The translations under genes and the position numbers were made by a program. From Syntrophaceae bacterium (GTDB taxonomy: Bacteria > Desulfobacterota > Desulfomonilia > UBA1062): a stretch of 64,000 bases of DNA. The DNA is taken from positions 4,206 to 68,205 of the forward strand of contig JBDKSM010000034.1 in NCBI GenBank assembly GCA_039680665.1, written 5' to 3'. Below, one piece after another: positions 18,654-32,920 of this stretch (position 1 is its first letter; every line of letters begins with the position of its first letter). The notes under the pieces were generated by a model that searched no databases, had not been told where the DNA came from, and saw only the letters and a program-made list of their open reading frames with translations.

Positions 18654-19850
18654 ATGGGGGATAAGATTATAAGAATATGTTCCTCCTGCGGAGAAGCGCT
18701 GGAGATTGATGATGCCTTTTGCAAGAACTGCGGGGCCAGCTTTGAGGAAAAGGGAGAGCAAAACGAAGGCGGCTTAGCTATCGGGTCGCAACTCCTGGAG
18801 TTGGCCAATAACTTTCTCTGTGTGAGCGGGGTGAACCCACAACGCTTTGAATTCGCATCCCGGTCCGGGGCGCAAGTGCCAGGTCAGAAGGGCACGATAA
18901 AGTACCAGGCCGTGGCGCAGCTGGCGCCGGAGAAAAACGAGGTTTTATTTTGGGAAAAGATGACCGAAAGTTTGGTGGGCATCGATGCCGACACTTCTCA
19001 CGAAGGCACCCTTCAGAAAAGTATTGACGTCAATCAGCAGATCCATGGGTATCTTATGTTCGGCGGCCCTTACGGTTTTCACTACGACAAACTGCACCGG
19101 GTGGTGAAGGCCATTACGAACGAGCAGGGCTGGCAATTCAAATTGGTCATGTCCAAACCGGCCATGGACACGTCTGTGCCGCCCCATGCCGCGCAGGAAA
19201 GATCGCGGAAGGATACAAGCCCTGTATGCGGGGCTTGTGTGGAAGGCCCAGAAGAGGCCGCTCATCCCGCTACATCCAGGAAAAGCATATGGATTCCCTT
19301 GATTCTGGCGGGAGCGGCCATCCTTATTGTAGCAGTTGCGCTGATTGGGATACGTAAGGAAACAACCATTTCCGAGAAACCAAGGACGGCTGCCGTACCG
19401 CATGAAGAGGCGAAATCTCAAAAGGCAGGCGGCGTGGAACAAAAGCCGTCTGTTTCCGCGCCACCAACGGCGATCGATTATAACGCCGAAGGCATAAGAG
19501 AAGCCAAGGCCGGGAAAATGGAAGAAGCGGCCGTGTTGTTTGAAAAGGCCGTGCAAGCTCATTCGGATAATTTCAATGCTTGGAATAACCTGGGGCTGGC
19601 GCTGCGCAAGATCGGCAAGAATGAGGAGGCCGTCACGGCCTACCAACGCGCCATTACCGTAAAACCCGACTTTGCCTTGGTCTACAAGAATCTCGGCATC
19701 GTGCTCGAGCAAATGGGCAAGAAGAAAGAGGCTGCCGACGCCTATCGGAGATACTCTGAACTGAATCCATCGGCCGCGGATGCGCGCACCGCCAGAGAAA
19801 AAGCCGAGACGCTGATCGGCGTGGAACAGGGAAAGGGGGCAAAACGATGA
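18654..19850 (+). CDS. zinc-ribbon / unknown domain / TM / TPR protein
   Basis: CSSCG...FCKNCG; TM WIPLILAGAAILIVAVALIGI; TPRs AWNNLGLAL, VYKNLGIVL. Confidence 0.8.
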   Translation: MGDKIIRICSSCGEALEIDDAFCKNCGASFEEKGEQNEGGLAIGSQLLELANNFLCVSGVNPQRFEFASRSGAQVPGQKGTIKYQAVAQLAPEKNEVLFWEKMTESLVGIDADTSHEGTLQKSIDVNQQIHGYLMFGGPYGFHYDKLHRVVKAITNEQGWQFKLVMSKPAMDTSVPPHAAQERSRKDTSPVCGACVEGPEEAAHPATSRKSIWIPLILAGAAILIVAVALIGIRKETTISEKPRTAAVPHEEAKSQKAGGVEQKPSVSAPPTAIDYNAEGIREAKAGKMEEAAVLFEKAVQAHSDNFNAWNNLGLALRKIGKNEEAVTAYQRAITVKPDFALVYKNLGIVLEQMGKKKEAADAYRRYSELNPSAADARTAREKAETLIGVEQGKGAKR

Positions 19851-20281
19851 GACGCATCTTTTTCGGACGTAACCTGATGTTGCTGCTTTGTTTTATCTTG
19901 GCATCCGGTTGTGCCGCCACAAAAACCACCACCAAGCCTGCCACGACCAGTCCGACGGCTCCAACCAGCACGACCGGTTTTACTCCAAAACCGGTGATTC
20001 TTTATGTCATCTCCGATCGGCTGAACCTGAGGGAGTGTCCGTCTTTACAGTGCAAGGTGGCCGTGGTGCTGAAACTGGGCGATGAAGTGATCGTGCTGGG
20101 ACAGAAACAGGATTGGATTAACGTAAGGGTAAAGGCTACTCACCAAGAAGGCTGGGTGGCCGCGTATCTGGTCGGGGAAACGCCCAGGGAAAGAACTCCA
20201 TCCAGGATCAAGGAAGAACCGTCTCCACGGGCAAAAGAGAAGCAGGGTCAACCTGAATTAAAGGAAGAGTTCTCCCCTTGA
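19847..20281 (+). CDS. SH3b-domain lipoprotein
   Basis: Lipobox LASGC; Thr/Pro linker; LNLRECPS...WINV...EGWV; ATGA overlap with upstream gene. Confidence 0.85.
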   Translation: MRRIFFGRNLMLLLCFILASGCAATKTTTKPATTSPTAPTSTTGFTPKPVILYVISDRLNLRECPSLQCKVAVVLKLGDEVIVLGQKQDWINVRVKATHQEGWVAAYLVGETPRERTPSRIKEEPSPRAKEKQGQPELKEEFSP

Positions 20282-20444
20282 AAGCTCCCCGAAGATTCTG
20301 CGGCGGTAATGAGGGTCAATAACTGAACACAAAAACGGCATCATCCGCCGGGTTCTGCTGAACATTTCCCAAAAAGGATCAGCCGCGGTTTTCGCATGGC
20401 GCGCCAAGCGGCAGGGGTAACGGCGGCGTTGTCATTTTGGGCGT

Positions 20445-20483
20445 CACGGGCAAAGGCCTTAGCCTTGCCCGTGTTTCCGTTTA
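20445..20483. terminator. hairpin between convergent SH3 gene and paaK
   Basis: CACGGGCAAAGG...CCTTGCCCGTG followed by TTTCCGTTT. Confidence 0.55.
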
Positions 20484-20498
20484 TAAATCGATATGGTA

Positions 20499-21788
20499 TC
20501 AGTTGCGATTATCAAAAAGCCGCTGCGACTTCCTGCCCGTGCGGGGCAGCTCGCCATCGCCCACGATCTCGATCGTACCGCTGACCAGGAGCGATTTGCG
20601 CATGTCGGTGGCGATGGCCTTGGCTATTGCCGCGTCGCCGTCCGCGCCGCCGTCCGGGGCGCGCTCGACCTTGACGGTCATGTAGTCCTTGCCGTCGTCT
20701 AAGCGCTCCAGCACGATCTGGTACTCGCTGCCGATGCCGGGATGGCGGCCTAAGATCTCTTCGATGTGGCTGGGGTAGATATTGACCCCGCGAATTATGA
20801 ACATGTCGTCCGAGCGGCCCGTGATGCGGTCATGCCGGGGCAAAACCGATCCGCAGGCGCACGCTCCGGGCAAGAGCCGGGTCAGGTCGCGCGAGCGGTA
20901 GCGCACCAGCGGGGCGCCTTCCTTTTTAAGCGTGGTGTAGACCATCTCGCCCACTTCGCCTTCCTTGACCGGTTCCAGGGTCTGGGGGTCGAGGATCTCG
21001 AGGATATAGTAATCCGGGAAATAGTGGATGCCCGCATGGTGGACGCAGTCCAGGCCGGTGCCGGGGCCGTAGACCTCGGTCAGTCCGGGGATGTCGAAGA
21101 CGTGCTCGGCATGGAAAAGGGCGCGGATCTTGTCGCGCATGGCGTCGCTGGAGCGCTCGGCGCCCATGATGACCTTGCGGACGTTCAGTTTGCCCGAGAT
21201 GCCGGCCTTCTCGGCCTCTTCGGCCAGGAGCAGGGCCATGGAGGCCGTGGAGCAGATGACCGTGGGCTGGAAATCTTCCAGGAACTGCAGGTGCATCTCC
21301 GTATTGCCGGGACCAACGGGTAAGGCCATGGCGCCGAAGCGCTCGCACCCGTTCTGAAAGCCCACGCCCGCGGTCCAGACCCCGTAGCCCACGCAGATCT
21401 GCACCCGGTCCAAGGCATTCAGATCCGCCAGCTCGTAACAGCGGGCGAACATGTGGGCCCAGTCATCGATGTCCTTGGCCGTGTAGGCCATGACCTTGCG
21501 CTTGCCGGTCGTGCCCGACGAGGCGTGGATGCGCACGATTCTATCAAACGGCACGGCGCGCAAGGGAAATGGATAGCCTTCCTGCAGGTCCTGGGCCGTC
21601 ACGAAGGGCAGGCGTCTGAGGTCGTCCAGGCTCCGGATTGCATCCGGCTTCACCCCGGCGGCATCGAAGCGGCCACGATAGAAATCCGAGCCGTGGTAGG
21701 CGTGTTGGACGGTCCACTTGAGGCCTTGGAGTTGGAGGGCCTCAAGCTCTGCTTGGGTTCGATACTGCGGCATGAAAGTTCCGGCCAT
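20499..21788 (-). CDS. paaK: arylacetate (phenylacetate)--CoA ligase, distal copy
   Basis: LQEGYPF, RIHASSGTTGK, GLTEVYGPG, PLVRYRSRDL, ITGRSDDMFIIRGVNIYP. Confidence 0.92.
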   Translation of the reverse strand: MAGTFMPQYRTQAELEALQLQGLKWTVQHAYHGSDFYRGRFDAAGVKPDAIRSLDDLRRLPFVTAQDLQEGYPFPLRAVPFDRIVRIHASSGTTGKRKVMAYTAKDIDDWAHMFARCYELADLNALDRVQICVGYGVWTAGVGFQNGCERFGAMALPVGPGNTEMHLQFLEDFQPTVICSTASMALLLAEEAEKAGISGKLNVRKVIMGAERSSDAMRDKIRALFHAEHVFDIPGLTEVYGPGTGLDCVHHAGIHYFPDYYILEILDPQTLEPVKEGEVGEMVYTTLKKEGAPLVRYRSRDLTRLLPGACACGSVLPRHDRITGRSDDMFIIRGVNIYPSHIEEILGRHPGIGSEYQIVLERLDDGKDYMTVKVERAPDGGADGDAAIAKAIATDMRKSLLVSGTIEIVGDGELPRTGRKSQRLFDNRN

Positions 21789-22330
21789 TATTGTCCTCCT
21801 TGAGCGTCGTGTTGTTGCATCTGTGTGTATCCGATGGCAATGGCCTTGATATTGTCGGCCAGCGAGCGTTTGGGCGAGATATCCTGCATGACCTGGTGGG
21901 CCTCGTCCAAACGTATGCCCAGCAATTTGAGGACGAATCCAAGCATGATCATGTTCACGCTGCCGGGCATGCCCTCGGCCAGGGCCAGTCCTGTGGCGTC
22001 CACGGTGAAGTCGAAGGCGTCCTTGGCCGGCGCGTTCACGGCCGCGATGCCGCCAGTTTTAAGCATGTGGAGAAGACTTAAGCTCTCGGCCGCATCCAGC
22101 CCGATGAGGATGTCGGCGCTGCCGGCCGGTATGAGCGGCGAGGCAAAGCTGCCGATCTTGAGGTTGGCCGTCACCGTGCCGCCGCGCATGGCCATGCCGT
22201 GGGTCTCGGAGGCGATCACCGGGTACCCCTGGCGTACGGCGATCTCGGCCAGGGCCCGGGCCAGCAGCAGGATGCCCTGGCCGCCGGTGCCCACCATGAA
22301 TATCTGTCGGTCTACTTGAGCAGTGTCCAT
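21788..22330 (-). CDS. iorB: indolepyruvate:ferredoxin oxidoreductase beta subunit
   Basis: GTGGQGILL, SETHGMAMRGGTV, SPLIP.GSAD, NMIMLG. Confidence 0.92.
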   Translation of the reverse strand: MDTAQVDRQIFMVGTGGQGILLLARALAEIAVRQGYPVIASETHGMAMRGGTVTANLKIGSFASPLIPAGSADILIGLDAAESLSLLHMLKTGGIAAVNAPAKDAFDFTVDATGLALAEGMPGSVNMIMLGFVLKLLGIRLDEAHQVMQDISPKRSLADNIKAIAIGYTQMQQHDAQGGQ

Positions 22331-23451
22331 TTTCCGTTCTTTACCTGTACCATGACCATGGAGTCCACGCCAAGCCCGCAATGGTCCTGGGCGCTCATGG
22401 TGTAGATGCCGCTGACGCCGATGAAACCCCGTACCCCTTCGATGGCCTTGGCCAGAGTGAGGCCGCCTTGGCCGCCCGATTTCTTGAGCCCCAGCGCCAG
22501 GAGCTGCATGGCATCCCAGGCATAGCCTGAGTGGGCGCCGGTCTTGCCGATCTTTTTCACGTTTTCATAATCGTTCTTGAACTTGGCCAGCACCGGGAAC
22601 TGAGGATCGTTCTTGGCGATCTGGTCTAAGACCATGAGCTTGACGGTGGGCATGATGGTGCCCTCGGCCGCGGCTCCAGCAAGCTCCAGGTATTTGGGAT
22701 CGGCCTGGCCGTGACAGTGGAGGAGCGGCATGGACATCCCCAACTGGCGAAAGTTCTTGGTCACGATGGCCCCTATCCCGCCGATGGTCCAGCACACCAC
22801 GGCCTGCGGACCCGTCTGTTTGATCTTGGTGAGCTGCACGCTTACGTCGCTGTCGGTGGTGTCAAAGACCTGGGCGCCCACGATCTCGATGCCGAAGTTC
22901 CCGGCGAGCTTTTCCAGGGAGGCCTTGCCTTCCTGCCCGAAATTATCCGAGGCGGTGATGATGGCGATCTTCTTGATGCCCTTGTCTTTGAGATAGGCAT
23001 AGGTGCGTTCCACGGCCGTGACGGTCTTTTGCGGGCTCTTGAACATGAACTGGCGCACCGGCTCCACCGGCGGGGTGCCGCCTACGAAGCCCACGGTAGG
23101 GGTCTGTGCGTCCTGGATGATCTTCAAGACCGCCATGGCCGAGCCCGTGCCCGTGGGACCGGCGATGGCGACAACCTTCTCGCGCTCGATCAGGCGTTTG
23201 GCCTCCAGGGCGGCCTTACCGGGGTTGCTCTGCGTATCGGCGAAAACGAGAGCTATGGGACGGCCTTGAATACCGCCCCCGGCGTTGATCGCGTCGGCCG
23301 CCATCATGGCCACGGCCTTGGAGGGCTCGCCGATGTGCCCTTCGGGACCTGATAGTCCCACCAGCACCCCGATCTTGACGGGCTGGGCCGCCAAAAGCGG
23401 GGAAACCATACCCAACAGCGCCAGCATACATACAAAAGATAATCTCTTCAT
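22312..23451 (-). CDS. ABC transporter periplasmic binding protein (LivK/HAAT family, aromatic-acid type)
   Basis: Signal peptide; VKIGVLVGLSG, INAGGGIQGRPI, GVSGIY.MS..DHCGL; GGAGG RBS. Confidence 0.9.
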   Translation of the reverse strand: MKRLSFVCMLALLGMVSPLLAAQPVKIGVLVGLSGPEGHIGEPSKAVAMMAADAINAGGGIQGRPIALVFADTQSNPGKAALEAKRLIEREKVVAIAGPTGTGSAMAVLKIIQDAQTPTVGFVGGTPPVEPVRQFMFKSPQKTVTAVERTYAYLKDKGIKKIAIITASDNFGQEGKASLEKLAGNFGIEIVGAQVFDTTDSDVSVQLTKIKQTGPQAVVCWTIGGIGAIVTKNFRQLGMSMPLLHCHGQADPKYLELAGAAAEGTIMPTVKLMVLDQIAKNDPQFPVLAKFKNDYENVKKIGKTGAHSGYAWDAMQLLALGLKKSGGQGGLTLAKAIEGVRGFIGVSGIYTMSAQDHCGLGVDSMVMVQVKNGKWTLLK

Positions 23452-23483
23452 AAAACCTTCCTCCTTTTATGAGGGGAGCCCCC

Positions 23484-24797
23484 TCAAGCTTGTAAGAACC
23501 TGCGATCAATGATCTTGGTGCGATGCTCCACCACCCCGGAAAGGCCCATGGGCTCAGCACATATGAGCCGGATCGTGGAGCCCAAGAGATCGATGAGCTG
23601 GGTGCGTACGGCGTGCACCAAGGTTTCCTTCAGGCGTTCTCGGGAATCATCGGGGCCGCTCTCGGGCAGCTCGAGGCGCACCTCCACGATATCATTGGTT
23701 GCTTCCCTGGTGACGATGACCTGGAAGCGGGGCCGCTCGCCCACTAAAGGCGCTAGGATATCCTCGATCATGCGGGCCGAGATCTCGATACCCGAGACCT
23801 CGATAGAGTCGTCCGTGCGGCCGGTAATGCGCGCCATGCGCCTGCCCGGCGCGAGCCGTCCGCAGGGGCACTCATCCTCGATCAGGGTCGTGAGGTCGCC
23901 GGTGCGGTAGCGGATGAGCGGCATGGCCTCCTTGGTGATGGTGGTCAGGACCAGTTCGCCCTCTTGCCCCGGTCCCAAAACCTCGCCCGTGGCCGGGTCG
24001 ATGACCTCCGGGATTACCTGGTCCTCGAAGATGTGCAGGCCGCCGCGGCTATGGCACTCGGCCGCCACGGCCGAGCCGTAGATCTCGCTCAAGCCGTAGT
24101 GATCATAGGCCTCGATGCCCAGCGCGGCCTCGATCAAGGCGCGTGTGTCCTCGCTCCACGGTTCGCCGCCCAAGAGCCCCTTCTTGAGCGGTATCGCGTC
24201 GGGGCCAAGCCTTAAGGCCTGGAAGGTCTCCATCAGGGCCAGGGCATAACAGGGCGTGGCGATAATAACCGTGGCGCCGTAGTCCATGATCATGCGCGCA
24301 TGGCGTTCCAGGTCCACGCTGGAGGTGGGGATCAGGGTCACGCCGAGTTCCTCGGCCCCGTGATGCAGACCGGCGCCGCCGGTAAAGAAGCTCGATCCAA
24401 AGGCGATGTGCACGATATCACCGGGGCCGATGCCCGCCAGCTTGAGCACGCGGCCGCTGACCTCGCGCCAGTGGCGCATGTCGTTGCGGTTGAAGCCCGC
24501 CACGGTGGGCCGGCCCGTGGTGCCGGCCGAGGAATGGATGCGCATGATTTCGGGGAGCTTGACCGCGAACATGCCATAGGGGTAGTTGTCGCGCAGCGTC
24601 TTCTTGGTGGTGTAGGGCAGGCGGGTGAGGTCGGTCAGGGACCCGACATCCTCGGGCACGAGCCCCAGTTGGTTGAAGAGCTCGTGGTAATAGCGGACGT
24701 TGCGATAGGCCCGGTTGAGCGTGGCCTGGAGACCTTCGAGCTGCAGCTGGCGCAGCTCTTCCATAGCGTTTGTGGCTTCAATGCGTCCGGAAGACAT
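23484..24797 (-). CDS. paaK: arylacetate (phenylacetate)--CoA ligase, proximal divergent copy
   Basis: LRDNYPYGMFAV, RIHSSAGTTGRPT, YGLSEIYG, EAMPLIRYRTGDL, ITGRTDD. Confidence 0.9.
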   Translation of the reverse strand: MSSGRIEATNAMEELRQLQLEGLQATLNRAYRNVRYYHELFNQLGLVPEDVGSLTDLTRLPYTTKKTLRDNYPYGMFAVKLPEIMRIHSSAGTTGRPTVAGFNRNDMRHWREVSGRVLKLAGIGPGDIVHIAFGSSFFTGGAGLHHGAEELGVTLIPTSSVDLERHARMIMDYGATVIIATPCYALALMETFQALRLGPDAIPLKKGLLGGEPWSEDTRALIEAALGIEAYDHYGLSEIYGSAVAAECHSRGGLHIFEDQVIPEVIDPATGEVLGPGQEGELVLTTITKEAMPLIRYRTGDLTTLIEDECPCGRLAPGRRMARITGRTDDSIEVSGIEISARMIEDILAPLVGERPRFQVIVTREATNDIVEVRLELPESGPDDSRERLKETLVHAVRTQLIDLLGSTIRLICAEPMGLSGVVEHRTKIIDRRFLQA

Positions 24798-25521
24798 CTC
24801 TCCCTCCTGCCTGGCCGAGATAGGCGCGCACGATCTCGGGATTGTCCTTCAGGTCGGTGGCGCTCCCGCTGAACACCACCTTGCCCGTCTCCATCACATA
24901 CCCCCTCTCCGCGATCTCCAGGGCCAGCCGGCCGTTTTGCTCGACTAAGAGGATGGCGGTGCCCTGTTGGGCGCGCAAGGAGCGCAGGCGTTCCAATAAC
25001 ATCTTTATGATGGCCGGGGCAAGGCCGCTGGAAAGCTCGTCCAAGAGCAGCAGCCGCGGGCGCGTGGTGAGCGCCCGGGCGATGGCGAGCATCTGCTGTT
25101 CCCCGCCCGAGAGCGTTCCGGCGAGCTGGTGTTGCCGCTCGGCCAGGGCCGGGAAGATTGACAGGCTCTCCTGAACCAGGGCCTTTTCCCGCGGTCCCAG
25201 GCGGAACTTGCGGTGGGCCAGGGCCAGGGTGATGTTCTCGCGCACGGTCAGGCTCCTGAAGAGCCCGCGGTCTTCGGGCACCAACGCCACACCCTGCCGG
25301 ATGGCATCACGCGGGTCATGCGCGGCCAGCGCCTTCTGATCCAGGATGATCTCGCCGCCCCGGATGGGCAAGATGCCGGCGATGGTCTTGAGCAAAGTGG
25401 ACTTGCCCGAGCCGTTGGCCCCGAAGACCACCACGATCTCGGAAGGACCGACGTGCAGCGAGACGTTCTTGAGGATGTGCAGGGCCCCATAGTAGGCGTT
25501 GACGTTCGTCAGCCTGAGCAC
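24778..25521 (-). CDS. livF: ABC transporter ATP-binding protein LivF-like
   Basis: GANGSGKS, GTLSGGEQQMLAIARAL, LLVEQN. Confidence 0.9.
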   Translation of the reverse strand: MLRLTNVNAYYGALHILKNVSLHVGPSEIVVVFGANGSGKSTLLKTIAGILPIRGGEIILDQKALAAHDPRDAIRQGVALVPEDRGLFRSLTVRENITLALAHRKFRLGPREKALVQESLSIFPALAERQHQLAGTLSGGEQQMLAIARALTTRPRLLLLDELSSGLAPAIIKMLLERLRSLRAQQGTAILLVEQNGRLALEIAERGYVMETGKVVFSGSATDLKDNPEIVRAYLGQAGGRDVFRTH

Positions 25522-25524
25522 CTT

Positions 25525-26274
25525 TTAGTCCCCCAGGTAGGCGGCGATGACCGCCTGATCGGTCTGGATCTGCTCGGGCGTGCCCTGGGCGATGCAGGCC
25601 CCGCGGTCCATGACGATCACCGTATCCGAGATACCCATGATGAGCTGCATGTCGTGGTCGATAATGAAGATGGTGGTGCCGCGTGTGTTCACCGCCTTTA
25701 AGAGCGCGGTCAGGTCCTCCACCTCGTGTGAGTTCAGGCCCGCGCCGGGTTCGTCTAAGAGCAGGAGCTTGGGATCGGCCGCCAGGGCCCGCGCGATCTC
25801 CATGAGCCGGAGTTGCCCGAAGCCCAGGGCCGCCACGGGTGCGCCGGCCGCCTCAGCCAGCCCGACCAGCTCAAGCGCGGCCTGAGCCTCGGCGCGCGCC
25901 TGCCGTTCGTGCCTGCGGTAGCCGGGCGTGCGCGCCAGGGCGGGCAACATGTGGTTGCAGTAGGCCCGGCTGGCGCCGATCAATACGTTTTCCAGCACGC
26001 TCATGCCGCCAAAGGCCTCCACGCCCTGGAAGGTGCGGATGCAGCCCAGACGGGCCACGCCGTGCGGGCGCCTGTGCGTGATGTCCTTGCCTTCAAGCCG
26101 GATGCGGCCGTGATCGGGCTTTAAAAAACCCGTGATCATGTTGAAGGTGGTGGTCTTGCCCGCGCCGTTGGGCCCGATCAGGGCCGTGATGCCGCCTTCT
26201 TTCACGCACAGGTTCAGGCCGTCCACGGCCTTGAGCTTGAAAAACGTTTTGGACAGGCCTTCAACCCTGAGCAC
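25525..26274 (-). CDS. livG: ABC transporter ATP-binding protein LivG-like
   Basis: LIGPNGAGKTT, RTFQ, LLLLDEPGAGL, DHDM, VIAAYLG; GTG start after GGAGG inferred. Confidence 0.9.
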   Translation of the reverse strand: MLRVEGLSKTFFKLKAVDGLNLCVKEGGITALIGPNGAGKTTTFNMITGFLKPDHGRIRLEGKDITHRRPHGVARLGCIRTFQGVEAFGGMSVLENVLIGASRAYCNHMLPALARTPGYRRHERQARAEAQAALELVGLAEAAGAPVAALGFGQLRLMEIARALAADPKLLLLDEPGAGLNSHEVEDLTALLKAVNTRGTTIFIIDHDMQLIMGISDTVIVMDRGACIAQGTPEQIQTDQAVIAAYLGD

Positions 26275-27220
26275 GCGCACCTCCGGGTCTGATGAGTCCC
26301 TGCGGGGCATAGATGAGGGTGGCGATCAGCACCACCCCGTAGATGACGGCTTCGAAATCGGTCGGATTGGCCAGCGGCACCCAGGCGGAGGCGGCCCTGA
26401 GAAGCTCGGGCAGCCAGGTTACGGCCAGGGCGCCGATGACCCCGCCCAAGAGGCTCATGGAACCGCCGATCACCACCATGACGATGAACTTGACCGAGAG
26501 CATCACCGAGGCCACATCGTCGGGGTTGATATAGGCCAGGGGCGAGCAGAAGCAATAGAGCCCGCCCGCCAGACCGGCTAGGCAGGCGCTCAAGACAAAG
26601 ATCTTGAGCTTGGCGGCCTCGAGGTCGATGCCCAGCGATGATACGGCCCGGGGGCTGGTATGCACGGCCTGCATGAGTGCCCCGAAGCGCGAGCTAATCA
26701 GGGACTCGCACAGGACATACACCACGATCAGCGCCGCCGTAACCAGGACATGGCGGCTGATATCATTATCTATGGTAACACCCATGATCTCCAGCGAGGG
26801 GATGGCGAAAATTCCTCCCGGGCCGCCGGTGGCGCCGAAGGGGTTGGCCCTCAAGATCGCATACACGATCACGCCGATGCCCAGCGTGGCCATGGCGAGG
26901 TAGTGCTCCTTGAGGCGTACGGTGGGCAGGCCCACCAGTAAAGCCACACCGGCGGGCAGGAGACAAGAGAGCCCCAGTCCGAGCCAGGGGTTCAGACCGA
27001 AGTTGACGCTGCCTATGGCCGCGGCATAGGCGCCCAGGCCGAAGAAGGCCGCATGGCACAGCGAGATCTGGCCGGTGTAGCCTAAGAGGAGGTTGAGGCT
27101 CAAGGCCACGACGGCGCTGATGCCGGTCATGGTCATGAGCGAGAGGTAGTAGGACAGCTCTCCCCGGCAGAGAACCAGCGGCGTGAGCATGAGCACCACC
27201 AGGATGAAGAGCCTCTTCAC
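26261..27220 (-). CDS. livM: ABC transporter permease LivM-like
   Basis: LNLLLGYTGQISLCHAAFFGLGAY, RLKEHYLAMATLG, MVVIGG. Confidence 0.9.
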   Translation of the reverse strand: MKRLFILVVLMLTPLVLCRGELSYYLSLMTMTGISAVVALSLNLLLGYTGQISLCHAAFFGLGAYAAAIGSVNFGLNPWLGLGLSCLLPAGVALLVGLPTVRLKEHYLAMATLGIGVIVYAILRANPFGATGGPGGIFAIPSLEIMGVTIDNDISRHVLVTAALIVVYVLCESLISSRFGALMQAVHTSPRAVSSLGIDLEAAKLKIFVLSACLAGLAGGLYCFCSPLAYINPDDVASVMLSVKFIVMVVIGGSMSLLGGVIGALAVTWLPELLRAASAWVPLANPTDFEAVIYGVVLIATLIYAPQGLIRPGGARAQG

Positions 27221-28074
27221 AGCCGCCCCCCTAAGAGGCCCTGCGGCCGGGTATAGAGGATGACGAGCACCAGAGTAAAGGCGATGACCTCTTTATAGCC
27301 CGAGAGCACGGCGCTGCCGCAGGTTTCGGCGATGCCGATCACCAGGCCGCCCAGCACCGCGCCGGGCAGGTTGCCCATACCGCCCAGCACCGCGGCGCAG
27401 AAACCTTTGAGCCCCAGCTCGGTGCCTTTGAGCCAGCTCATCTGGGTGAGCGGGGTGATGAGCGCCCCGGCCGCGGCGCCGATGGCGGCGCTTAGAGCAA
27501 AGGCCAAAATCGGCAGCGTCTGCGATTCCACGCCCAGGTTGCGGATGGCCTGCCGGTCCTCGGCCATGGCGCGCAGCGTCGCCCCCAGCAGGGTGTATTT
27601 CAGAAACAGACCCAAGGCCAGCACGATTGCGGCGCCGAGGGCCAGGATCCAGAGCGTCTGGGAGGGGATCGTGGCCCCCAGCGCCGTGACGGCCGTCGGT
27701 CCGGGCAGGGCCGGCAGGTGAAACTCGTCCTTGGTGACGGCCCCCACCAGGGCCTTGAGGATGAACGAAACCCCGATGGTGATGATGATGAGCGTGGTCA
27801 TGCCGGAGCCACGCGCCGGGCGTATGGCCAGGCGTTCCACGGCCATGCCGGCCAGGGCGGTCAGGCCGATGGCCAGACCCATGGCCGCGGCCAGTGGCAG
27901 GCCCTGGAACTGGTGCAGCCACACCGCCAGCATGCCGCCCAGCATCACGAATTCGCCCTGGGCGAAATTGATGATCCCGCTCGTATTGTAGGTCAGAGAG
28001 AAACCGACGGCGATCAGGGCATACAGGGTCCCGATGCCGATGCCGGTCAGCAGGTACTGGAGCAGGACGCTCAT
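27217..28074 (-). CDS. livH: ABC transporter permease LivH-like
   Basis: YALIAVGFSL, INFAQGEFVMLG, GLKGFCAAVLGGMG; ATGA overlap with iorA stop. Confidence 0.9.
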   Translation of the reverse strand: MSVLLQYLLTGIGIGTLYALIAVGFSLTYNTSGIINFAQGEFVMLGGMLAVWLHQFQGLPLAAAMGLAIGLTALAGMAVERLAIRPARGSGMTTLIIITIGVSFILKALVGAVTKDEFHLPALPGPTAVTALGATIPSQTLWILALGAAIVLALGLFLKYTLLGATLRAMAEDRQAIRNLGVESQTLPILAFALSAAIGAAAGALITPLTQMSWLKGTELGLKGFCAAVLGGMGNLPGAVLGGLVIGIAETCGSAVLSGYKEVIAFTLVLVILYTRPQGLLGGRL

Positions 28075-29882
28075 GCCTTGTTTCCGGCCACGATGGCATG
28101 CTTCGGGCAGGCGTGCACGCACACGCCGCACCCGATACACAGGGTCAGGTCGATCGCCATCTTGGTCTCGCCCGGGATGAGCGCCGGGCATTCGAACTCC
28201 TTGACGCAGTAGCCGCACAAGGTGCACTCGTCGGTGATGGACATGGCGTAGGAGGTCTGACGCGCCAAGGCCTGCCGGTCGCGGATGCAGGGGTGCCGGG
28301 CGATGACGGCGGCTACACCTTCCTCTTCGGTGCGGGTATAGGCCTGCCTGACCGCCCGGGTAAAGCCCGGGAGGTCGTAGGGATCATGGGTGATGATGGT
28401 CCGTACACCGCAGCCCTTCAGGACCTCTTCCAGCTGGAGTGTCCGTCCGTCGTAGTCGCTCGTCACCCCTCCCGTGGCCGGGGTCGGCTGGTGGCCGGTC
28501 ATGGCCGTGGTGGCGTTGTCCAGGATCACCAGCACGAAGCGCGCCCCCGTGACCAAGGCGTTGATGGTGGGCGGAATGCCGGCATGGAAATAGGTGGAAT
28601 CGCCGATGATGGCCGCGATGGGCGGCGGCGTGGCCGTGTGCTTGAAGGCGTGGTAAAACCCCGCGGCCTGGGATACGGCCGCGCCCATGCACAGGCAGGT
28701 ATCCACGGCACCTAAGTTGAGCCCCAGGGTATAGCAGCCGATGTCCGAGGTGTAGATCCCCTTGGGCAGGGCGCGCTTGACGGCATAGAAGGCGCCGCGA
28801 TGCGAGCAGCCCGCGCACAGCGAGGGCCGCCGTCCTTGGCGGGCTTCACCGGCCTCGACCTGGGGCGCTGCACCGCTCACCGTGTCCAGCACCGTCATCA
28901 CGATCTCGGGGTTCAGCTCGCCCGCATTCGGCACGGTAGCGTCCATCCGGCCGCGCACGTTGGTGCGGCAGGGGAACTGCTGCTCGATGACCGGCTCGGT
29001 CTCCTCCACGACCAGCACGGTCGCGTGCGCCTCGGCCAGGCGATTCAGCTCGGCCGGGTCCATGGGGTAGGGCATGTCCACCTTGTAGAGGCAGATATCC
29101 GGCCAGCGCTTGAAGCCGGTCAGGACATCGAGCAAGTAGGCATAGGCCACGCCCGAGGCAACGACCGCGATGCGTTCGGCGCCGGTGCCCTTGGTGAGCT
29201 TAGGCCTAGCCCAGGGGTGGCGCATCAGGGTGGCAATCTTGGTATTGAGCTCATGGTGGAGCGCCAGGCGCGGTCCGGGCGTGGCGGCCCAGCGCGCCGG
29301 GTCCTTGTGGAAGACCGGTTCGGCCATGCTGGCAGAATCCAGAGCGGGCATCTCCACGAGCTGGCGCGCGTGGCAGACGCGCGTGGTGGGCCTCAAGATC
29401 ACGGCCGTGCGGTACTCTTCGGAGAAGGCGAAGGCCTCGATCGTCATGCGTAGGGCCTCGGCCGGGCAGCTGGGATCGAGGACCGGCAGCTTGGCGAACA
29501 GGGCGAAGAGCCGGGTGTCCTGCTCGGTCTGGGAGGAATGCGGCCCCGGGTCGTCGGCCACGATGATGAGCATGCCGCCCACGGTCCCCATGTAGGCCGC
29601 GCTCATGGCCGGGTCCGAGGCCACGTTGAAGCCCACCTGTTTCATGGCCACGGCCGAACGCCGGCCGGCTATGGCATTGGCGTAGGCCACCTCGAAGGCC
29701 GTCTTCTCGTTGATGGACCACTCCACGTGCACGGGCAGTCCATGGGCCTTGACCGCGCGAAAGACCGTCTCGCAGATTTCGGAGGCCGGCGTGCCCGGGT
29801 AGGACGCCACCACGCCGGCGCCAGCGGACAGGATGCCATAGGCGATTGCTTCGTTCCCCAGCAGGATCTTCGAACCGTTCAT
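28071..29882 (-). CDS. iorA: indolepyruvate:ferredoxin oxidoreductase alpha subunit
   Basis: LLGNEAIA, YPGTPASE, EWSINEK, DDPGPHSSQTEQD, LCAGCSHR, SDIGCYTLG, IGDSTYFH, LDN.TTAMTGHQP, C-terminal 2[4Fe-4S]. Confidence 0.95.
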   Translation of the reverse strand: MNGSKILLGNEAIAYGILSAGAGVVASYPGTPASEICETVFRAVKAHGLPVHVEWSINEKTAFEVAYANAIAGRRSAVAMKQVGFNVASDPAMSAAYMGTVGGMLIIVADDPGPHSSQTEQDTRLFALFAKLPVLDPSCPAEALRMTIEAFAFSEEYRTAVILRPTTRVCHARQLVEMPALDSASMAEPVFHKDPARWAATPGPRLALHHELNTKIATLMRHPWARPKLTKGTGAERIAVVASGVAYAYLLDVLTGFKRWPDICLYKVDMPYPMDPAELNRLAEAHATVLVVEETEPVIEQQFPCRTNVRGRMDATVPNAGELNPEIVMTVLDTVSGAAPQVEAGEARQGRRPSLCAGCSHRGAFYAVKRALPKGIYTSDIGCYTLGLNLGAVDTCLCMGAAVSQAAGFYHAFKHTATPPPIAAIIGDSTYFHAGIPPTINALVTGARFVLVILDNATTAMTGHQPTPATGGVTSDYDGRTLQLEEVLKGCGVRTIITHDPYDLPGFTRAVRQAYTRTEEEGVAAVIARHPCIRDRQALARQTSYAMSITDECTLCGYCVKEFECPALIPGETKMAIDLTLCIGCGVCVHACPKHAIVAGNKA

Positions 29883-29931
29883 TGTGCCCTCATATGGTAC
29901 TCAATTCGTTGGTGATAATGCCCTGTTACAA

Positions 29932-29959
29932 TAAAAAAGGCGACCTTTAAGGTCGCCTT
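29932..29959 (-). terminator. attenuator intrinsic terminator (3:4 helix)
   Basis: Minus-strand RNA AAGGCGACC-UUAAA-GGUCGCCUUUUUUA, 50 nt upstream of the iorA start. Confidence 0.9.
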
Positions 29960-29987
29960 GCCCGTTTTTGCCGCAGTAGTCGACCTT

Positions 29988-30038
29988 TTATGCGTCCGTG
30001 TTACGCCACCAGGAGAGTCGACCATGATGTTTCTTCAT
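29988..30038 (-). CDS. TrpL-like attenuator leader peptide MKKHHGRLSWWRNTDA
   Basis: Hand translation ATG AAG AAA CAT CAT GGT CGA CTC TCC TGG TGG CGT AAC ACG GAC GCA TAA; tandem Trp at codons 10-11 followed by Arg, as in E. coli TrpL. Confidence 0.85.
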   Translation of the reverse strand: MKKHHGRLSWWRNTDA

Positions 30039-30197
30039 GGAAGAACATACAACCGTATCGCGCCGCGTTTGTCAAATGGAAAAGTGTAATGTGGCAATAT
30101 CAGGACATTCGGCGCTTTTCATGGCGGTGCTCCTGTAGTATAGGCCTTATGGTGCCCGGACTTATCGGGATTTGAATGCAAAAAAGGAGGAAACACC

Positions 30198-30989
30198 ATG
30201 AGTTACGAGACCATCACCTATAAAATCATCGAGCCGGGAATCGGCCTTTTGAACCTGAACCGGCCGCAGGCCTATAATGCGGTCAACCGGCTCATGATGC
30301 GGGAGCTTAACTCTTTCTGGGCCGAGCGATGTCGGGACAACACCACTAATGTGATCATTCTGCAGGGCTCCGGCAAAGGCTTCTGCGCCGGGCTCGATCT
30401 CAAGGACAGCGCCGAGGCGGTTGTCAACCTGAATATGCAGGAGGCCTTGGATTACCAGGCCGGACTCACGGGCATCGTCGCCGCCATGCGCAAGGCCCCG
30501 CAGCCGATTATCGCGTTGGTGCACGGCGCGGCCATGGGGCTGGGCTTCAGCTTTACACTGGCCGCGGACATGCGTGTCATCGCCGAGAACGCTCGTTTCT
30601 CGGCGGCCTACATCAATGTGGGCTTGGGCGGCGCGGACATGGCCTGCAGCTATCTGCTGCCGCGCATGATCGGCACCGGCAGGGCCTATGAGATGATGCT
30701 GACCGGAGAGACCCTCACGGCGGCCGAGGTCATGGGTCTGGGCCTGGCCAGCCGCATGGTGCCCCGCGACGATCTCATGGAAACGGCCCTGGGGCTTGCC
30801 CGCGCCATGCAAACCAAGAACCCGCTGGGCTTAAGGTTGACCAAGCAGGCCATCAATACCAGCCTCAATGCCGGCAGCCTCGAACAGGCCATCCAGACGG
30901 AAAACCTCACCCAGGTCTTCCTGGCCGCCAAGGCCATGCTCGAATCGGGCCGGGCGCTTAGGTCCACCCTAGAGAACAAATCCATATGA
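30198..30989 (+). CDS. enoyl-CoA hydratase/isomerase family protein
   Basis: LNRPQAYNA, FCAGLDL, PQPIIALVHGAAMGLG, ADMRV; AAGGAGG RBS. Confidence 0.92.
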   Translation: MSYETITYKIIEPGIGLLNLNRPQAYNAVNRLMMRELNSFWAERCRDNTTNVIILQGSGKGFCAGLDLKDSAEAVVNLNMQEALDYQAGLTGIVAAMRKAPQPIIALVHGAAMGLGFSFTLAADMRVIAENARFSAAYINVGLGGADMACSYLLPRMIGTGRAYEMMLTGETLTAAEVMGLGLASRMVPRDDLMETALGLARAMQTKNPLGLRLTKQAINTSLNAGSLEQAIQTENLTQVFLAAKAMLESGRALRSTLENKSI

Positions 30990-31163: not shown

Positions 31164-31261
31164 GGATAAAGGCGTACCCGAGACCCGATCGGGTTTGGGC
31201 TTGAAAAGACAGGGCCTAAATGCGATATAGCATCGAATTCCGATTATGGAGAGGTATCGCG

Positions 31262-32920
31262 ATGAGAAGCGACAATGCCAAGAAATCCCTGGAAAAGGCC
31301 CCGCACCGTTCGCTCTTGAAGGCGCTGGGACTGACGGATGAAGAGATCAGCAGGCCTTTCGTGGGCGTGGTCAACTCGGCCAACGAGCTCATACCCGGGC
31401 ATATGCACCTGAACCAGATCGTCTCGGCGGTCAAGGCCGGGGTGCGTCTGGCGGGCGGCACGCCCTTTGAGTTCTCGGTCATCGGCATCTGCGACGGCAT
31501 CGCCATGTACCATGCCGGCATGCACTACTCGCTGCCCTCGCGCGAGATCATCGCGGACTCCATCGAGCTCACCGTTATGGCGCATGCCTTTGATGCCTTG
31601 GTTTTCGTGCCCAACTGCGACAAGATCGTGCCGGCCATGCTCATGGCGGGCTTGCGCTTGAACATCCCGTCCGTGGTGGTCTCGGGCGGACCCATGCTGG
31701 CCGGACGTTTCCGGGGCAAAAGCGTGGACCTGATCAGCGTCTTCGAGGGCGTGGGCCGGGTCAAGGCCGGGACCATGACCGAGGACGAGCTCAAGGAGCT
31801 GGAAGAGTGCGCCTGCCCGACCTGCGGCTCGTGCTCCGGGATGTTTACGGCCAACTCCATGAACTGCCTGACCGAGGCCCTCGGTCTGGGTCTGCCCGGC
31901 AACGGCACGGTGCCGGCGCCCTTTTCCGAGCGCATCCGCCTGGCCAAACAGGCCGGCCAGCAGGTCATGGAGCTCTTAGCCAAGGATATCAAACCTCGCG
32001 ACATCGCCACGCCCGCGGCCTTCAGGAACGCCATCGCCGTGGACATGGCCCTGGGCTGCTCGACCAATACGGTCCTGCATGTCCCGGCCGTGGCGTACGA
32101 GGCCGGCATTGAGCTCGATCTCATGGACTTCGACGACATGAGCCGCAAGGTGCCGCACCTGTGCAGCATGTCGCCGGCCGGACCGCATCATATCGAGGAC
32201 CTCTACCAGGCGGGCGGCATCCAGGGCGTGATGCGGCGCTTGAACGAGCTGGGCGTGCTGGACACCGGCGTTATGACCGCTACGGGCGGGACGCTTGAGG
32301 AAAATTTGGCAGCGGCCCGGATCAATGATGAAGACGTCATCCGTCCCATCACAAAGGCCTATCATAGCGAGGGCGGCATCGCCATTTTGAAAGGCACGCT
32401 GGCCCCTGACGGCGCGGTGGTCAAGCAGTCCGGCGTGGCCCCCGAGATGATGCGCCGCGAAGGTGTGGCGCGGGTCTTCGACGGCGAGGAGGCGGCCGTC
32501 AAGGTGATTCTGGCGGGCGGCATAAAGGCGGGCGATGTCGTCATCATCCGCTATGAGGGTCCCAAGGGCGGACCGGGTATGCGCGAGATGCTCACCCCCA
32601 CTTCGGCCATCGCCGGCATGGGTCTGGACAAGGACGTGGCCCTGATCACGGACGGACGCTTCAGCGGCGGCACGCGCGGGGCGGCCATCGGGCACTGTTC
32701 GCCCGAGGCGGCCGAGGGCGGCCCCCTTGCGTTTGTAAAGGACGGGGATATTATTAGTATCGATATACCCGGGCGCAGGCTCGATCTCAAGGTGGACGGC
32801 TCTGAGTTGGAACGCAGAAAAACTACCTGGCGGCGCCCCACCCAAAGCTTGACCGGGGTGCTGAAACGCTATGCGGAGTTAAGCCTCTCGGCCGACAAGG
32901 GGGCGCGGTACCGAGACTGA
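31262..32920 (+). CDS. ilvD: dihydroxy-acid dehydratase
   Basis: [56 protein letters not shown]. Confidence 0.97.

Follow-up and report, generated by a model that had tools for sequence, protein, structure and literature searches.

In anaerobes, genes for indolepyruvate:ferredoxin oxidoreductase (IOR) are usually read as functions of amino-acid fermentation, and their neighbours as "branched-chain amino acid" or "phenylacetate" functions. What such genes are for is a question raised by a locus of a Syntrophaceae bacterium (Desulfobacterota, Desulfomonilia), in which an ior operon stands behind a short leader open reading frame (ORF) with adjacent tryptophan (Trp) codons. We analysed a 64,000-nt stretch of this genome (GenBank assembly GCA_039680665.1, contig JBDKSM010000034.1, positions 4,206 to 68,205; hereafter the window) and found nine minus-strand ORFs (29882..20499) in the order iorA-livH-livM-livG-livF-paaK-SBP-iorB-paaK, where SBP stands for a solute-binding protein and every junction between genes is either an overlap or a gap of ≤32 nt. 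Judged from its sequence, and with moderate confidence, we read the locus as a salvage operon induced by Trp starvation, which would import indoleacetate, activate it as a CoA thioester and carboxylate it reductively to indolepyruvate; that its purpose is anabolic and directed at Trp we consider quite likely. Throughout, G000 denotes this genome (a 4.2-Mb assembly), C34, C84 and the like its contigs, G001 onward the genomes of relatives, and L numbers loci.

The control region of the operon contains the following predicted elements (positions in the window):

30070..30075, minus strand: -35 hexamer TTGACA of the operon promoter, read from the sequence, followed by 17 nt, TTGTAT, 8 nt and the leader ATG
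29988..30038, minus strand: leader peptide ORF MKKHHGRLSWWRNTDA plus stop, 16 codons, with TGG TGG at 30011..30006 and the stop codon at 29990..29988
30016..30024, minus strand: attenuator segment 1, UGGUCGACU, just 5' of the Trp codons, pairing with segment 2 in the free RNA
29977..29985, minus strand: attenuator segment 2, GGUCGACUA, 2 nt past the leader stop, with either segment 1 or the 5' arm of the terminator as its partner
29931..29959, minus strand: intrinsic terminator AAGGCGACCUU-AAA-GGUCGCCUU plus T tract, with a 10-pair stem at 29959..29937, 50 nt before iorA

The 121-nt leader RNA had a minimum-free-energy fold of -36.9 kcal/mol (z = -2.7), the duplex of segments 1 and 2 reached -12.7 kcal/mol (z = -3.2), and the antiterminator formed by segment 2 and the 5' arm of the terminator reached -10.3 kcal/mol. 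From this 1:2, 2:3 and 3:4 attenuator geometry we infer control that is ON when Trp is scarce. In a Trp-starved cell, the ribosome would stall on UGG UGG and mask segment 1; segment 2 would then be available to the 5' arm of the terminator, and RNA polymerase would read through. With ample Trp, the ribosome would run on to the stop codon, which lies 2 nt short of segment 2; the terminator would then fold and transcription would stop. The attenuator and its sense appear well supported on these grounds, and we hold them with high confidence. A preliminary description of this DNA had proposed nine coupled genes, from iorA to the second paaK, behind a Trp attenuator that switches on under Trp shortage; the ORFs, the Pfam and NCBIfam matches, the leader and the terminator bore out the arrangement, and the direction of switching follows from the geometry just described.

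The leader shares with E. coli trpL a short ORF with adjacent Trp codons and a terminator before the first structural gene, and the 1:2, 2:3 and 3:4 hairpins predicted for it would follow the same logic. It differs from trpL in that a putative salvage operon, rather than biosynthetic genes, would be under its control, in the suggestion of a leaderless or nearly leaderless mRNA (below), and in having no Rfam match: a search of the whole window at gathering thresholds returned nothing, which places the leader outside the curated RNA families. The operon promoter was not called by a simple consensus scan. In both the ior and the trpE leaders, the spacing from the -35 TTGACA to the ATG was constant (17 nt, hexamer, 8 nt) and no Shine-Dalgarno sequence was visible (window 30038-30075; L013-L021, L043, L044 and L047; G000:C84:2350-2400). 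The conserved distance from promoter to ATG suggests that the mRNA from which the leader peptides are made may be leaderless or nearly so.

A search with IorA of 40 relatives and of a species-genome collection yielded 13 distinct orthologous loci, with IorA 63-100% identical to that of the window. All 13 carried a short ORF with WW, WWW or WWWW and a terminator, and the spacing between TTGACAA and the leader start was identical in all 13. When the 13 sequences were aligned, 98.3% of cells in the terminator were paired and 3 of its pairs had changed on both sides; in the antiterminator 84.6% were paired, as against 41-64% in slid controls. Antiterminator pairing was present in every sequence (13/13), its 5' strand beginning -1 to +5 nt from the leader stop. 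The 4.2-Mb genome was also scanned for short ORFs with in-frame TGGTGG accompanied by a hairpin and T5 within 110 nt. Four places were found, among which the ior leader and the trpE leader were the only two solid ones. The match at C34 24169..24098 (window 19964..19893, minus strand; ..WSWQAWWWFLW.., with a hairpin) lies inside an opposite-strand SH3-domain gene and was judged a by-product of Pro codons, the match at C143 84259..84206 was rejected for its poor hairpin, and the additional matches in a looser list of Trp-rich (W) leaders in G000 were judged to be chance. Leader scans of G000 for other amino acids gave only weak matches (His 0, Ile/Leu/Val 1, Thr/Ile 1). The Trp leader on the ior operon is not a chance occurrence.

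The preliminary description had suggested checking the genome for a complete trpEGDCFBA set. We found the set complete and split over two contigs, with trpEGDC and part of trpF on C84 and the rest of trpF plus trpBA on C17. The trpE operon has its own leader, MMKGIHMFEQKNWWRWQVNSRDGGLP (WWRW; opening with MMKGIHMFEQKNWWRWQ), and terminator, and its promoter shares the geometry seen at the ior operon. W leaders before trpE were found in 3/3 other genomes of the same family and in 3/9 of a sister family. Because W leaders also precede trpE, they can be read as a Trp-supply signal in this lineage, with trpE and ior as the only solid operons of the W-leader regulon in G000.

The genes behind the leader, and the probable end of the operon, are as follows:

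28071..29882, minus strand: iorA, alpha subunit of an IOR-type 2-oxoacid:ferredoxin oxidoreductase, 603 aa (Pfam POR_N, TPP_enzyme_C, Fer4)
27217..28074, minus strand: livH-like permease of a HAAT-family ATP-binding cassette (ABC) transporter (PF02653); the likely start ATG at 28074 overlaps the iorA stop, and the mechanical ORF runs from 28227
26261..27220, minus strand: livM-like permease (PF02653, BPD_transp_2)
25525..26280, minus strand: livG-like ATPase (PF00005, PF12399); likely start GTG at 26280 or 26274, mechanical ORF from 26310
24778..25521, minus strand: livF-like ATPase (PF00005, ABC_tran)
23484..24797, minus strand: paaK1, PaaK-like AMP-forming aryl-acid CoA ligase, 437 aa, part of the transporter cassette (PF00501, PF14535)
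22312..23451, minus strand: SBP, predicted periplasmic, with a signal peptide (PF13458, Peripla_BP_6), of the aromatic-acid cluster B-III type
21788..22330, minus strand: iorB, oxidoreductase beta subunit (PF01558, POR); likely start ATG at 22330, mechanical ORF from 22381
20499..21788, minus strand: paaK2, PaaK-like CoA ligase, 429 aa, the constant companion of this iorAB type
20336..20350, minus strand: terminator-like hairpin and T run after paaK2, the probable operon end

IorA carries two 4Fe-4S motifs in addition to POR_N and the TPP-binding C domain (Pfam), and the pairs of permeases and ATPases are of the LivHMGF/UrtBCDE kind. Both ligases combine an AMP-binding N domain with the PaaK-type C domain PF14535; they are PaaK-like by family, and their identity as PaaK is putative. 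The best Protein Data Bank (PDB) matches of paaK2 were the PaaK structures 2y27 and 4r1l (E 1e-103), the latter presumably a Bacteroides-type PaaK, and the public names of paaK2 relatives are all the automatic "phenylacetate-CoA ligase". Taken as a pathway, the HAAT-type importer and its cluster B-III SBP would bring into the cell an aryl acid with an indole group, most likely indole-3-acetate (IAA), the AMP-forming ligases would form its CoA thioester, IorAB would use reduced ferredoxin and CO2 to carboxylate the thioester reductively, giving indolepyruvate, and one of the genome's aminotransferases would convert indolepyruvate to Trp. Ten class I/II aminotransferase genes are present in the genome, none of them in the operon. 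The genes, the attenuator with its conservation and a parallel Phe/Tyr-attenuated paralogue (below) are observed, and the ligand, the specificity of the ligases, the reductive direction and the transamination step are what we infer. Neither an ADP-forming synthetase nor a phosphotransacylase/kinase pair was found among the operon genes (Pfam, NCBIfam), and the anabolic direction fits because an importer and AMP-forming ligases occur without these enzymes and are wired to Trp shortage. AMP-forming ligases favour thioester synthesis, as argued for Bacteroides IOR in the accessible portion of PMC13285125.

The fused layout of the window was seen in G000, G001, G020, G009 and L043, and a compact layout, iorA-iorB-paaK2, in G011, G005, G015, G003, G006, L044 and L047; close copies of the SBP were restricted to the fused layout, within the window's family. 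We then surveyed the phylum in an even sample of 301 genomes, 89 of which had an IorA match at E <= 1e-150. The matches listed included 28 new phylum loci, for 3 of which <230 nt upstream were available. Of the 28, 7 (L118, L121, L124, L125, L132, L133 and L137) had a W-rich leader and terminator in front, six in tandem form and up to WWWWW, and none had a Phe/Tyr (F/Y) leader with a terminator. Two of these loci, from other families, read on extension W leader-iorA-iorB-livH-livM-livG-livF-paaK-paaK2-SBP (L145) and W leader-iorA-iorB-livH-livM-livG-livF-paaK2-SBP (L146). Because the same gene set recurs, reordered, under the same Trp signal, it would form one functional module. In the sister family (L072-L087), the 4-kb loci around the SBP held livGF-SBP clusters and no W leader, and were uninformative.

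Two further upstream elements were observed in the survey. In L120 and L123, from another family, a conserved TCGAAACGATTCAA box and a GC-rich hairpin with a T run lie ~100 nt before iorA-iorB-paaK2, without an aromatic leader ORF; the box may be a different regulatory element. In L117, L122, L129 and L143, a repeated palindrome, CCCCCCTGACCCCCCTTT..AAAGGGGGGAATTT, occurs upstream of iorA in several genomes and looks like an intergenic repeat of the repetitive extragenic palindromic (REP) type.

The preliminary description had also proposed looking for ior/paaK paralogues with Phe/Tyr leaders, and we found one outside the window. A second, canonical iorA-iorB-paaK operon (G000:C133:3018-6830, L067), whose IorA scored 722 bits against TIGR03336, above the cut-off, follows a Phe/Tyr-rich leader, MQTRALTKFYFYFCFFRPGRCP (FYFYFCFF), and then a hairpin, GGCCATGGGCG..CGCCATGGCC (GGCCATGGG..CCATGGCC terminator), with a T tract. 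Among 22 paralogue loci in the family, one was cut by a contig end, and an F/Y-rich leader with this type of terminator was kept in 17 of the 21 evaluable ones (14 by strict criteria; the stem is imperfect in the other 3, which belong to one genus); no leader was seen at the loci of G010, G018 and G008 (3/21), and that of G021 was ambiguous (1/21). In a maximum-likelihood tree of IorA with 69 rows, all 20 W-leader rows fell within one large clade, the 13 family orthologues formed a clade of their own (support 100), and 4 F/Y-leader rows with 1 leaderless row made up another clade (SH-aLRT 100). The two IorA proteins of G000 are 37% identical and its two IorB proteins 30%, and pairwise identity among its four PaaK-like ligases is 35-43% (paaK1 versus paaK2, 35%). 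This split between W and F/Y paralogues argues for substrate-specific systems and, because Trp codons stand in one leader and Phe/Tyr codons in the other, their purpose would be to supply the cognate amino acid.

Two more loci of G000 resemble parts of these systems. At C132:7885-9366 (L003) lies a third, distant IOR-alpha-like match (118 bits) with one in-frame TAG. At C35:6488-12278 (L066), outside the window, a third aromatic leader, the Tyr-rich MRNYACIQAYRYVYYYRKKRCP, and the same type of terminator precede an operon in which a PaaK-like ligase of 450 aa is encoded along with a binding protein and two each of permeases and ATPases. The C35 binding protein resembles LivJ-type amino-acid binders, so its cargo may be Phe/Tyr themselves; an aryl acid is the other candidate.

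Relatives without detected trp genes bear on the proposed role. At E <= 1e-60, trpE was not detected in 6/41 genomes, which are draft metagenome-assembled genomes (MAGs). In four of them, G020 (96% complete), G012 (99%), G003 (78%) and G024 (96%), trpD, indole-3-glycerol phosphate synthase and canonical trpB were undetected as well, where "not found" in a draft MAG is not "absent"; only a TrpB-like paralogue of ~150 bits, which also occurs in G000, was present. These four may be auxotrophic for Trp by the de novo route. Two of the four share one genus and are 96% and 99% complete. G020 and G003 keep a W-attenuated ior operon despite undetected trpE, trpD, trpC and canonical trpB, a pattern that fits a Trp-supply role of the operon and raises the possibility that it is the sole Trp route in some lineages.

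The best PDB match of the SBP was 7ylt (E 4.6e-38, full length), followed by 4q6w, 3ukj, 3uk0, 3tx6, 4jb0 and 4dqd, the runners-up being proteins of Bordetella and Rhodopseudomonas whose entries call them Leu/Ile/Val-binding or extracellular ligand-binding; E. coli LivJ (1z15) matched at only E 4.9e-6. We take 7YLT to be Variovorax IadK2 because the IadK2 paper cites it and crystallised IadK2, and because the entry is named as an ABC substrate-binding protein. According to the available part of that paper (PMC10374108), IadK2 belongs to the iad auxin-degradation operon and is specific for IAA, which it binds with nanomolar affinity, and does not bind phenylacetate, and IadK2 and RPA1789 are members of subcluster B-III, which serve aromatic-acid uptake. 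With the SBP nearest to IadK2 and LivJ far lower, the "branched-chain amino acid" label of the transporter names a family and not a function, as the preliminary description had suspected. The similarity supports the ligand class, an aromatic acid, rather than IAA itself, for which the sequence makes a plausible case that we favour with moderate confidence.

Several observations weigh against the proposed salvage of indoleacetate. In the accessible part of PMC10374108, mutation of F168, W172, R199, F308 or Y311 of IadK2 hurts IAA binding; the corresponding residues of the SBP are A, F, T, H and Y (chain numbering offset of 27, derived from the printed alignment), so that only Tyr311 is kept (1/5), and Ser104 is replaced by Thr. 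The earlier interpretation as IAA import is thus upheld for the class of binder, with IadK2 as best match, and not for the residues that contact IAA. IorA scored 608.4 bits against TIGR03336 (IOR_alpha), under the equivalog cut-off of 650.9, IorB fell under the cut-off of all NCBIfam IOR-beta models (best 131.2 vs 227), and the ligases reached 404.5 (paaK1) and 395.1 bits against TIGR02155 (PaaK), under the equivalog cut-off of 646.3. Import is not obligatory, because five relatives have the compact iorA-iorB-paaK2 layout without a close SBP copy. With a full trp operon in G000, the ior route is dispensable here, and loss of the trp operon is not regularly offset by the ior operon, because G012 and G024 have neither detectable trp genes nor this type of iorA. 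In the sister family, where iorA is single-copy and 45-50% identical, an aromatic leader was found in 0/16 loci (L022-L037); these ior genes may be differently controlled or of other purpose. Within the leader itself, per-sequence duplex z-scores over the orthologous loci were modest (mean -1.5), and antiterminator covariation was weak, with 1 pair changed on both sides and a score that was reached by 10/500 shuffles.

An operon that is likewise anabolic and induced by Trp starvation could carry something other than IAA, namely Trp itself, another indole, or a broad range of aryl acids or 2-oxoacids for which Trp is the mere signal. The largely unconserved IadK2 contacts would agree with this, the two different ligases (35% identical) hint at more than one substrate, and the Phe/Tyr-attenuated C35 operon, which pairs a LivJ-like binder with a PaaK-like ligase, points to amino-acid import under such leaders in the same genome. 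We nevertheless consider another cargo unlikely: the SBP is far nearer to aromatic-acid binders than to LivJ, the split of W and F/Y paralogues speaks for dedicated substrates, and the enzyme families themselves point to arylacetates. To our knowledge, IOR consumes or forms no thioester other than arylacetyl-CoA, and the acids activated by PaaK-type ligases are arylacetates.

The opposite direction was also considered, in which IOR would oxidise Trp-derived indolepyruvate to indoleacetyl-CoA in catabolism or fermentation, under a leader that is TnaC-like (Trp-induced) or without regulatory function. The first descriptions of IOR came from peptide fermentation; as far as the available excerpts of PMC5897657 and PMC13285125 go, the enzyme works oxidatively in clostridia and in the formation of phenylacetate by Bacteroides, and its reactions are reversible. 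However, tandem to fivefold Trp codons with a terminator and antiterminator, as on the trpE operon, mark starvation sensing, and the operon is kept by genomes without detected trp genes. An importer and AMP-forming ligases would also be senseless for an excreted acid, and neither an ADP-forming synthetase nor a phosphotransacylase/kinase pair is in the operon. We therefore regard a catabolic role as improbable. Breakdown of phenylacetate or indoleacetate for carbon and energy by an iaa- or paa-like route with an incidental leader would account for an importer and a CoA ligase, the usual start of anaerobic aromatic-acid breakdown (Aromatoleum IaaM and IaaB; PMC8360864), and for the enoyl-CoA hydratase gene divergent upstream (30198..30989), but it is very improbable, as a mutase, a transferase, an acyl-CoA dehydrogenase and a ring reductase are all missing from the operon (Pfam, NCBIfam), the sole enzyme after the ligases is IOR, and the W leader, present in 13/13 orthologues, is seen again before this gene set in other families.

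The genes on either side appear unrelated to the operon. Upstream on the other strand, the divergent enoyl-CoA hydratase gene is followed by ilvD (31220..32920), and the downstream flank holds the SH3-domain gene (19847..20281, opposite strand) and a tetratricopeptide-repeat (TPR) gene. Short contigs from two RNA-library runs of one wastewater sample, taken in the study that is also the probable source of this DNA, matched parts of the SBP, permease, ATPase, paaK1 and iorA genes exactly. These matches are compatible with transcription of the operon, bearing in mind that DNA may contaminate RNA libraries; the contigs carry no ends, starts or levels, and none covered the leader and promoter (29986-30300). 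Sediment metagenome contigs from another study cover 20300..28749.

The chemistry proposed for this operon is already known. Allison and Robinson reportedly described in 1967 how rumen anaerobes make tryptophan from indoleacetate by reductive carboxylation. In Methanococcus maripaludis, aryl acids are converted to aromatic amino acids through IOR in vivo (Porat et al. 2004, as cited in the accessible part of PMC4162585). The methanogen and rumen routes would share with the window the conversion of an aryl acid to arylacetyl-CoA and on to arylpyruvate by an IOR-type enzyme that uses reduced ferredoxin and CO2, followed by transamination. In contrast to M. maripaludis, the present case concerns a bacterium of the Desulfomonilia, whose IOR genes share an operon with two AMP-forming ligases and an ABC importer and which has Trp- and Phe/Tyr-attenuated paralogues. 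Bacteroides iorAB likewise stands beside an AMP-forming PaaK-like ligase, an arylacetate-CoA ligase whose activity was reported and for which an anabolic role was suggested in the available part of PMC13285125; no attenuator or importer is described in that part, and the IorA of the window belongs to another clade, 37% identical to the canonical-type IorA of G000. Aromatoleum has a known binding protein, IaaM, and an indoleacetate-specific CoA ligase, IaaB, broadly of the same kind as those in the window (PMC8360864). The window shares with Variovorax IadK2 an aromatic-acid binder on a HAAT-type ABC transporter, and with IaaM-IaaB uptake followed by CoA activation; indoleacetate is destroyed in those systems, by oxidation or breakdown, whereas here the only downstream enzyme is IOR, the signal is Trp supply, and the IadK2 contacts are not conserved. 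In the open-access literature searched, we found no description of Trp or Phe/Tyr leaders on ior operons, of the IOR/PaaK paralogue split or of a built-in aromatic-acid importer, and none of the spread of this control through the Desulfobacterota. Rodionov et al. 2004 (PMC545781) contains no mention of tryptophan, indolepyruvate, attenuator or aromatic.

It is possible, though we hold this tentatively, that the Desulfobacterota possess two amino-acid-specific systems for aryl-acid salvage, told apart by their leader codons. The Trp system would comprise one IorAB clade and paaK2, in many cases joined by an ABC importer for aromatic acids, and the Phe/Tyr system the other IorAB-PaaK clade; in G020 and G003 the trp operon would be gone and the Trp-attenuated operon would be the sole Trp route, so that such organisms would depend on the indoleacetate (auxin) released by their fermenting neighbours. 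More generally, if the leaders do state the purpose of these operons, their codons would provide a sequence-readable marker of substrate class and direction for IOR/PaaK modules in metagenomes, and Trp auxotrophy may have been scored wrongly for some genomes. Arylacetates such as indoleacetate would then serve as amino-acid currencies in sediments and digesters.

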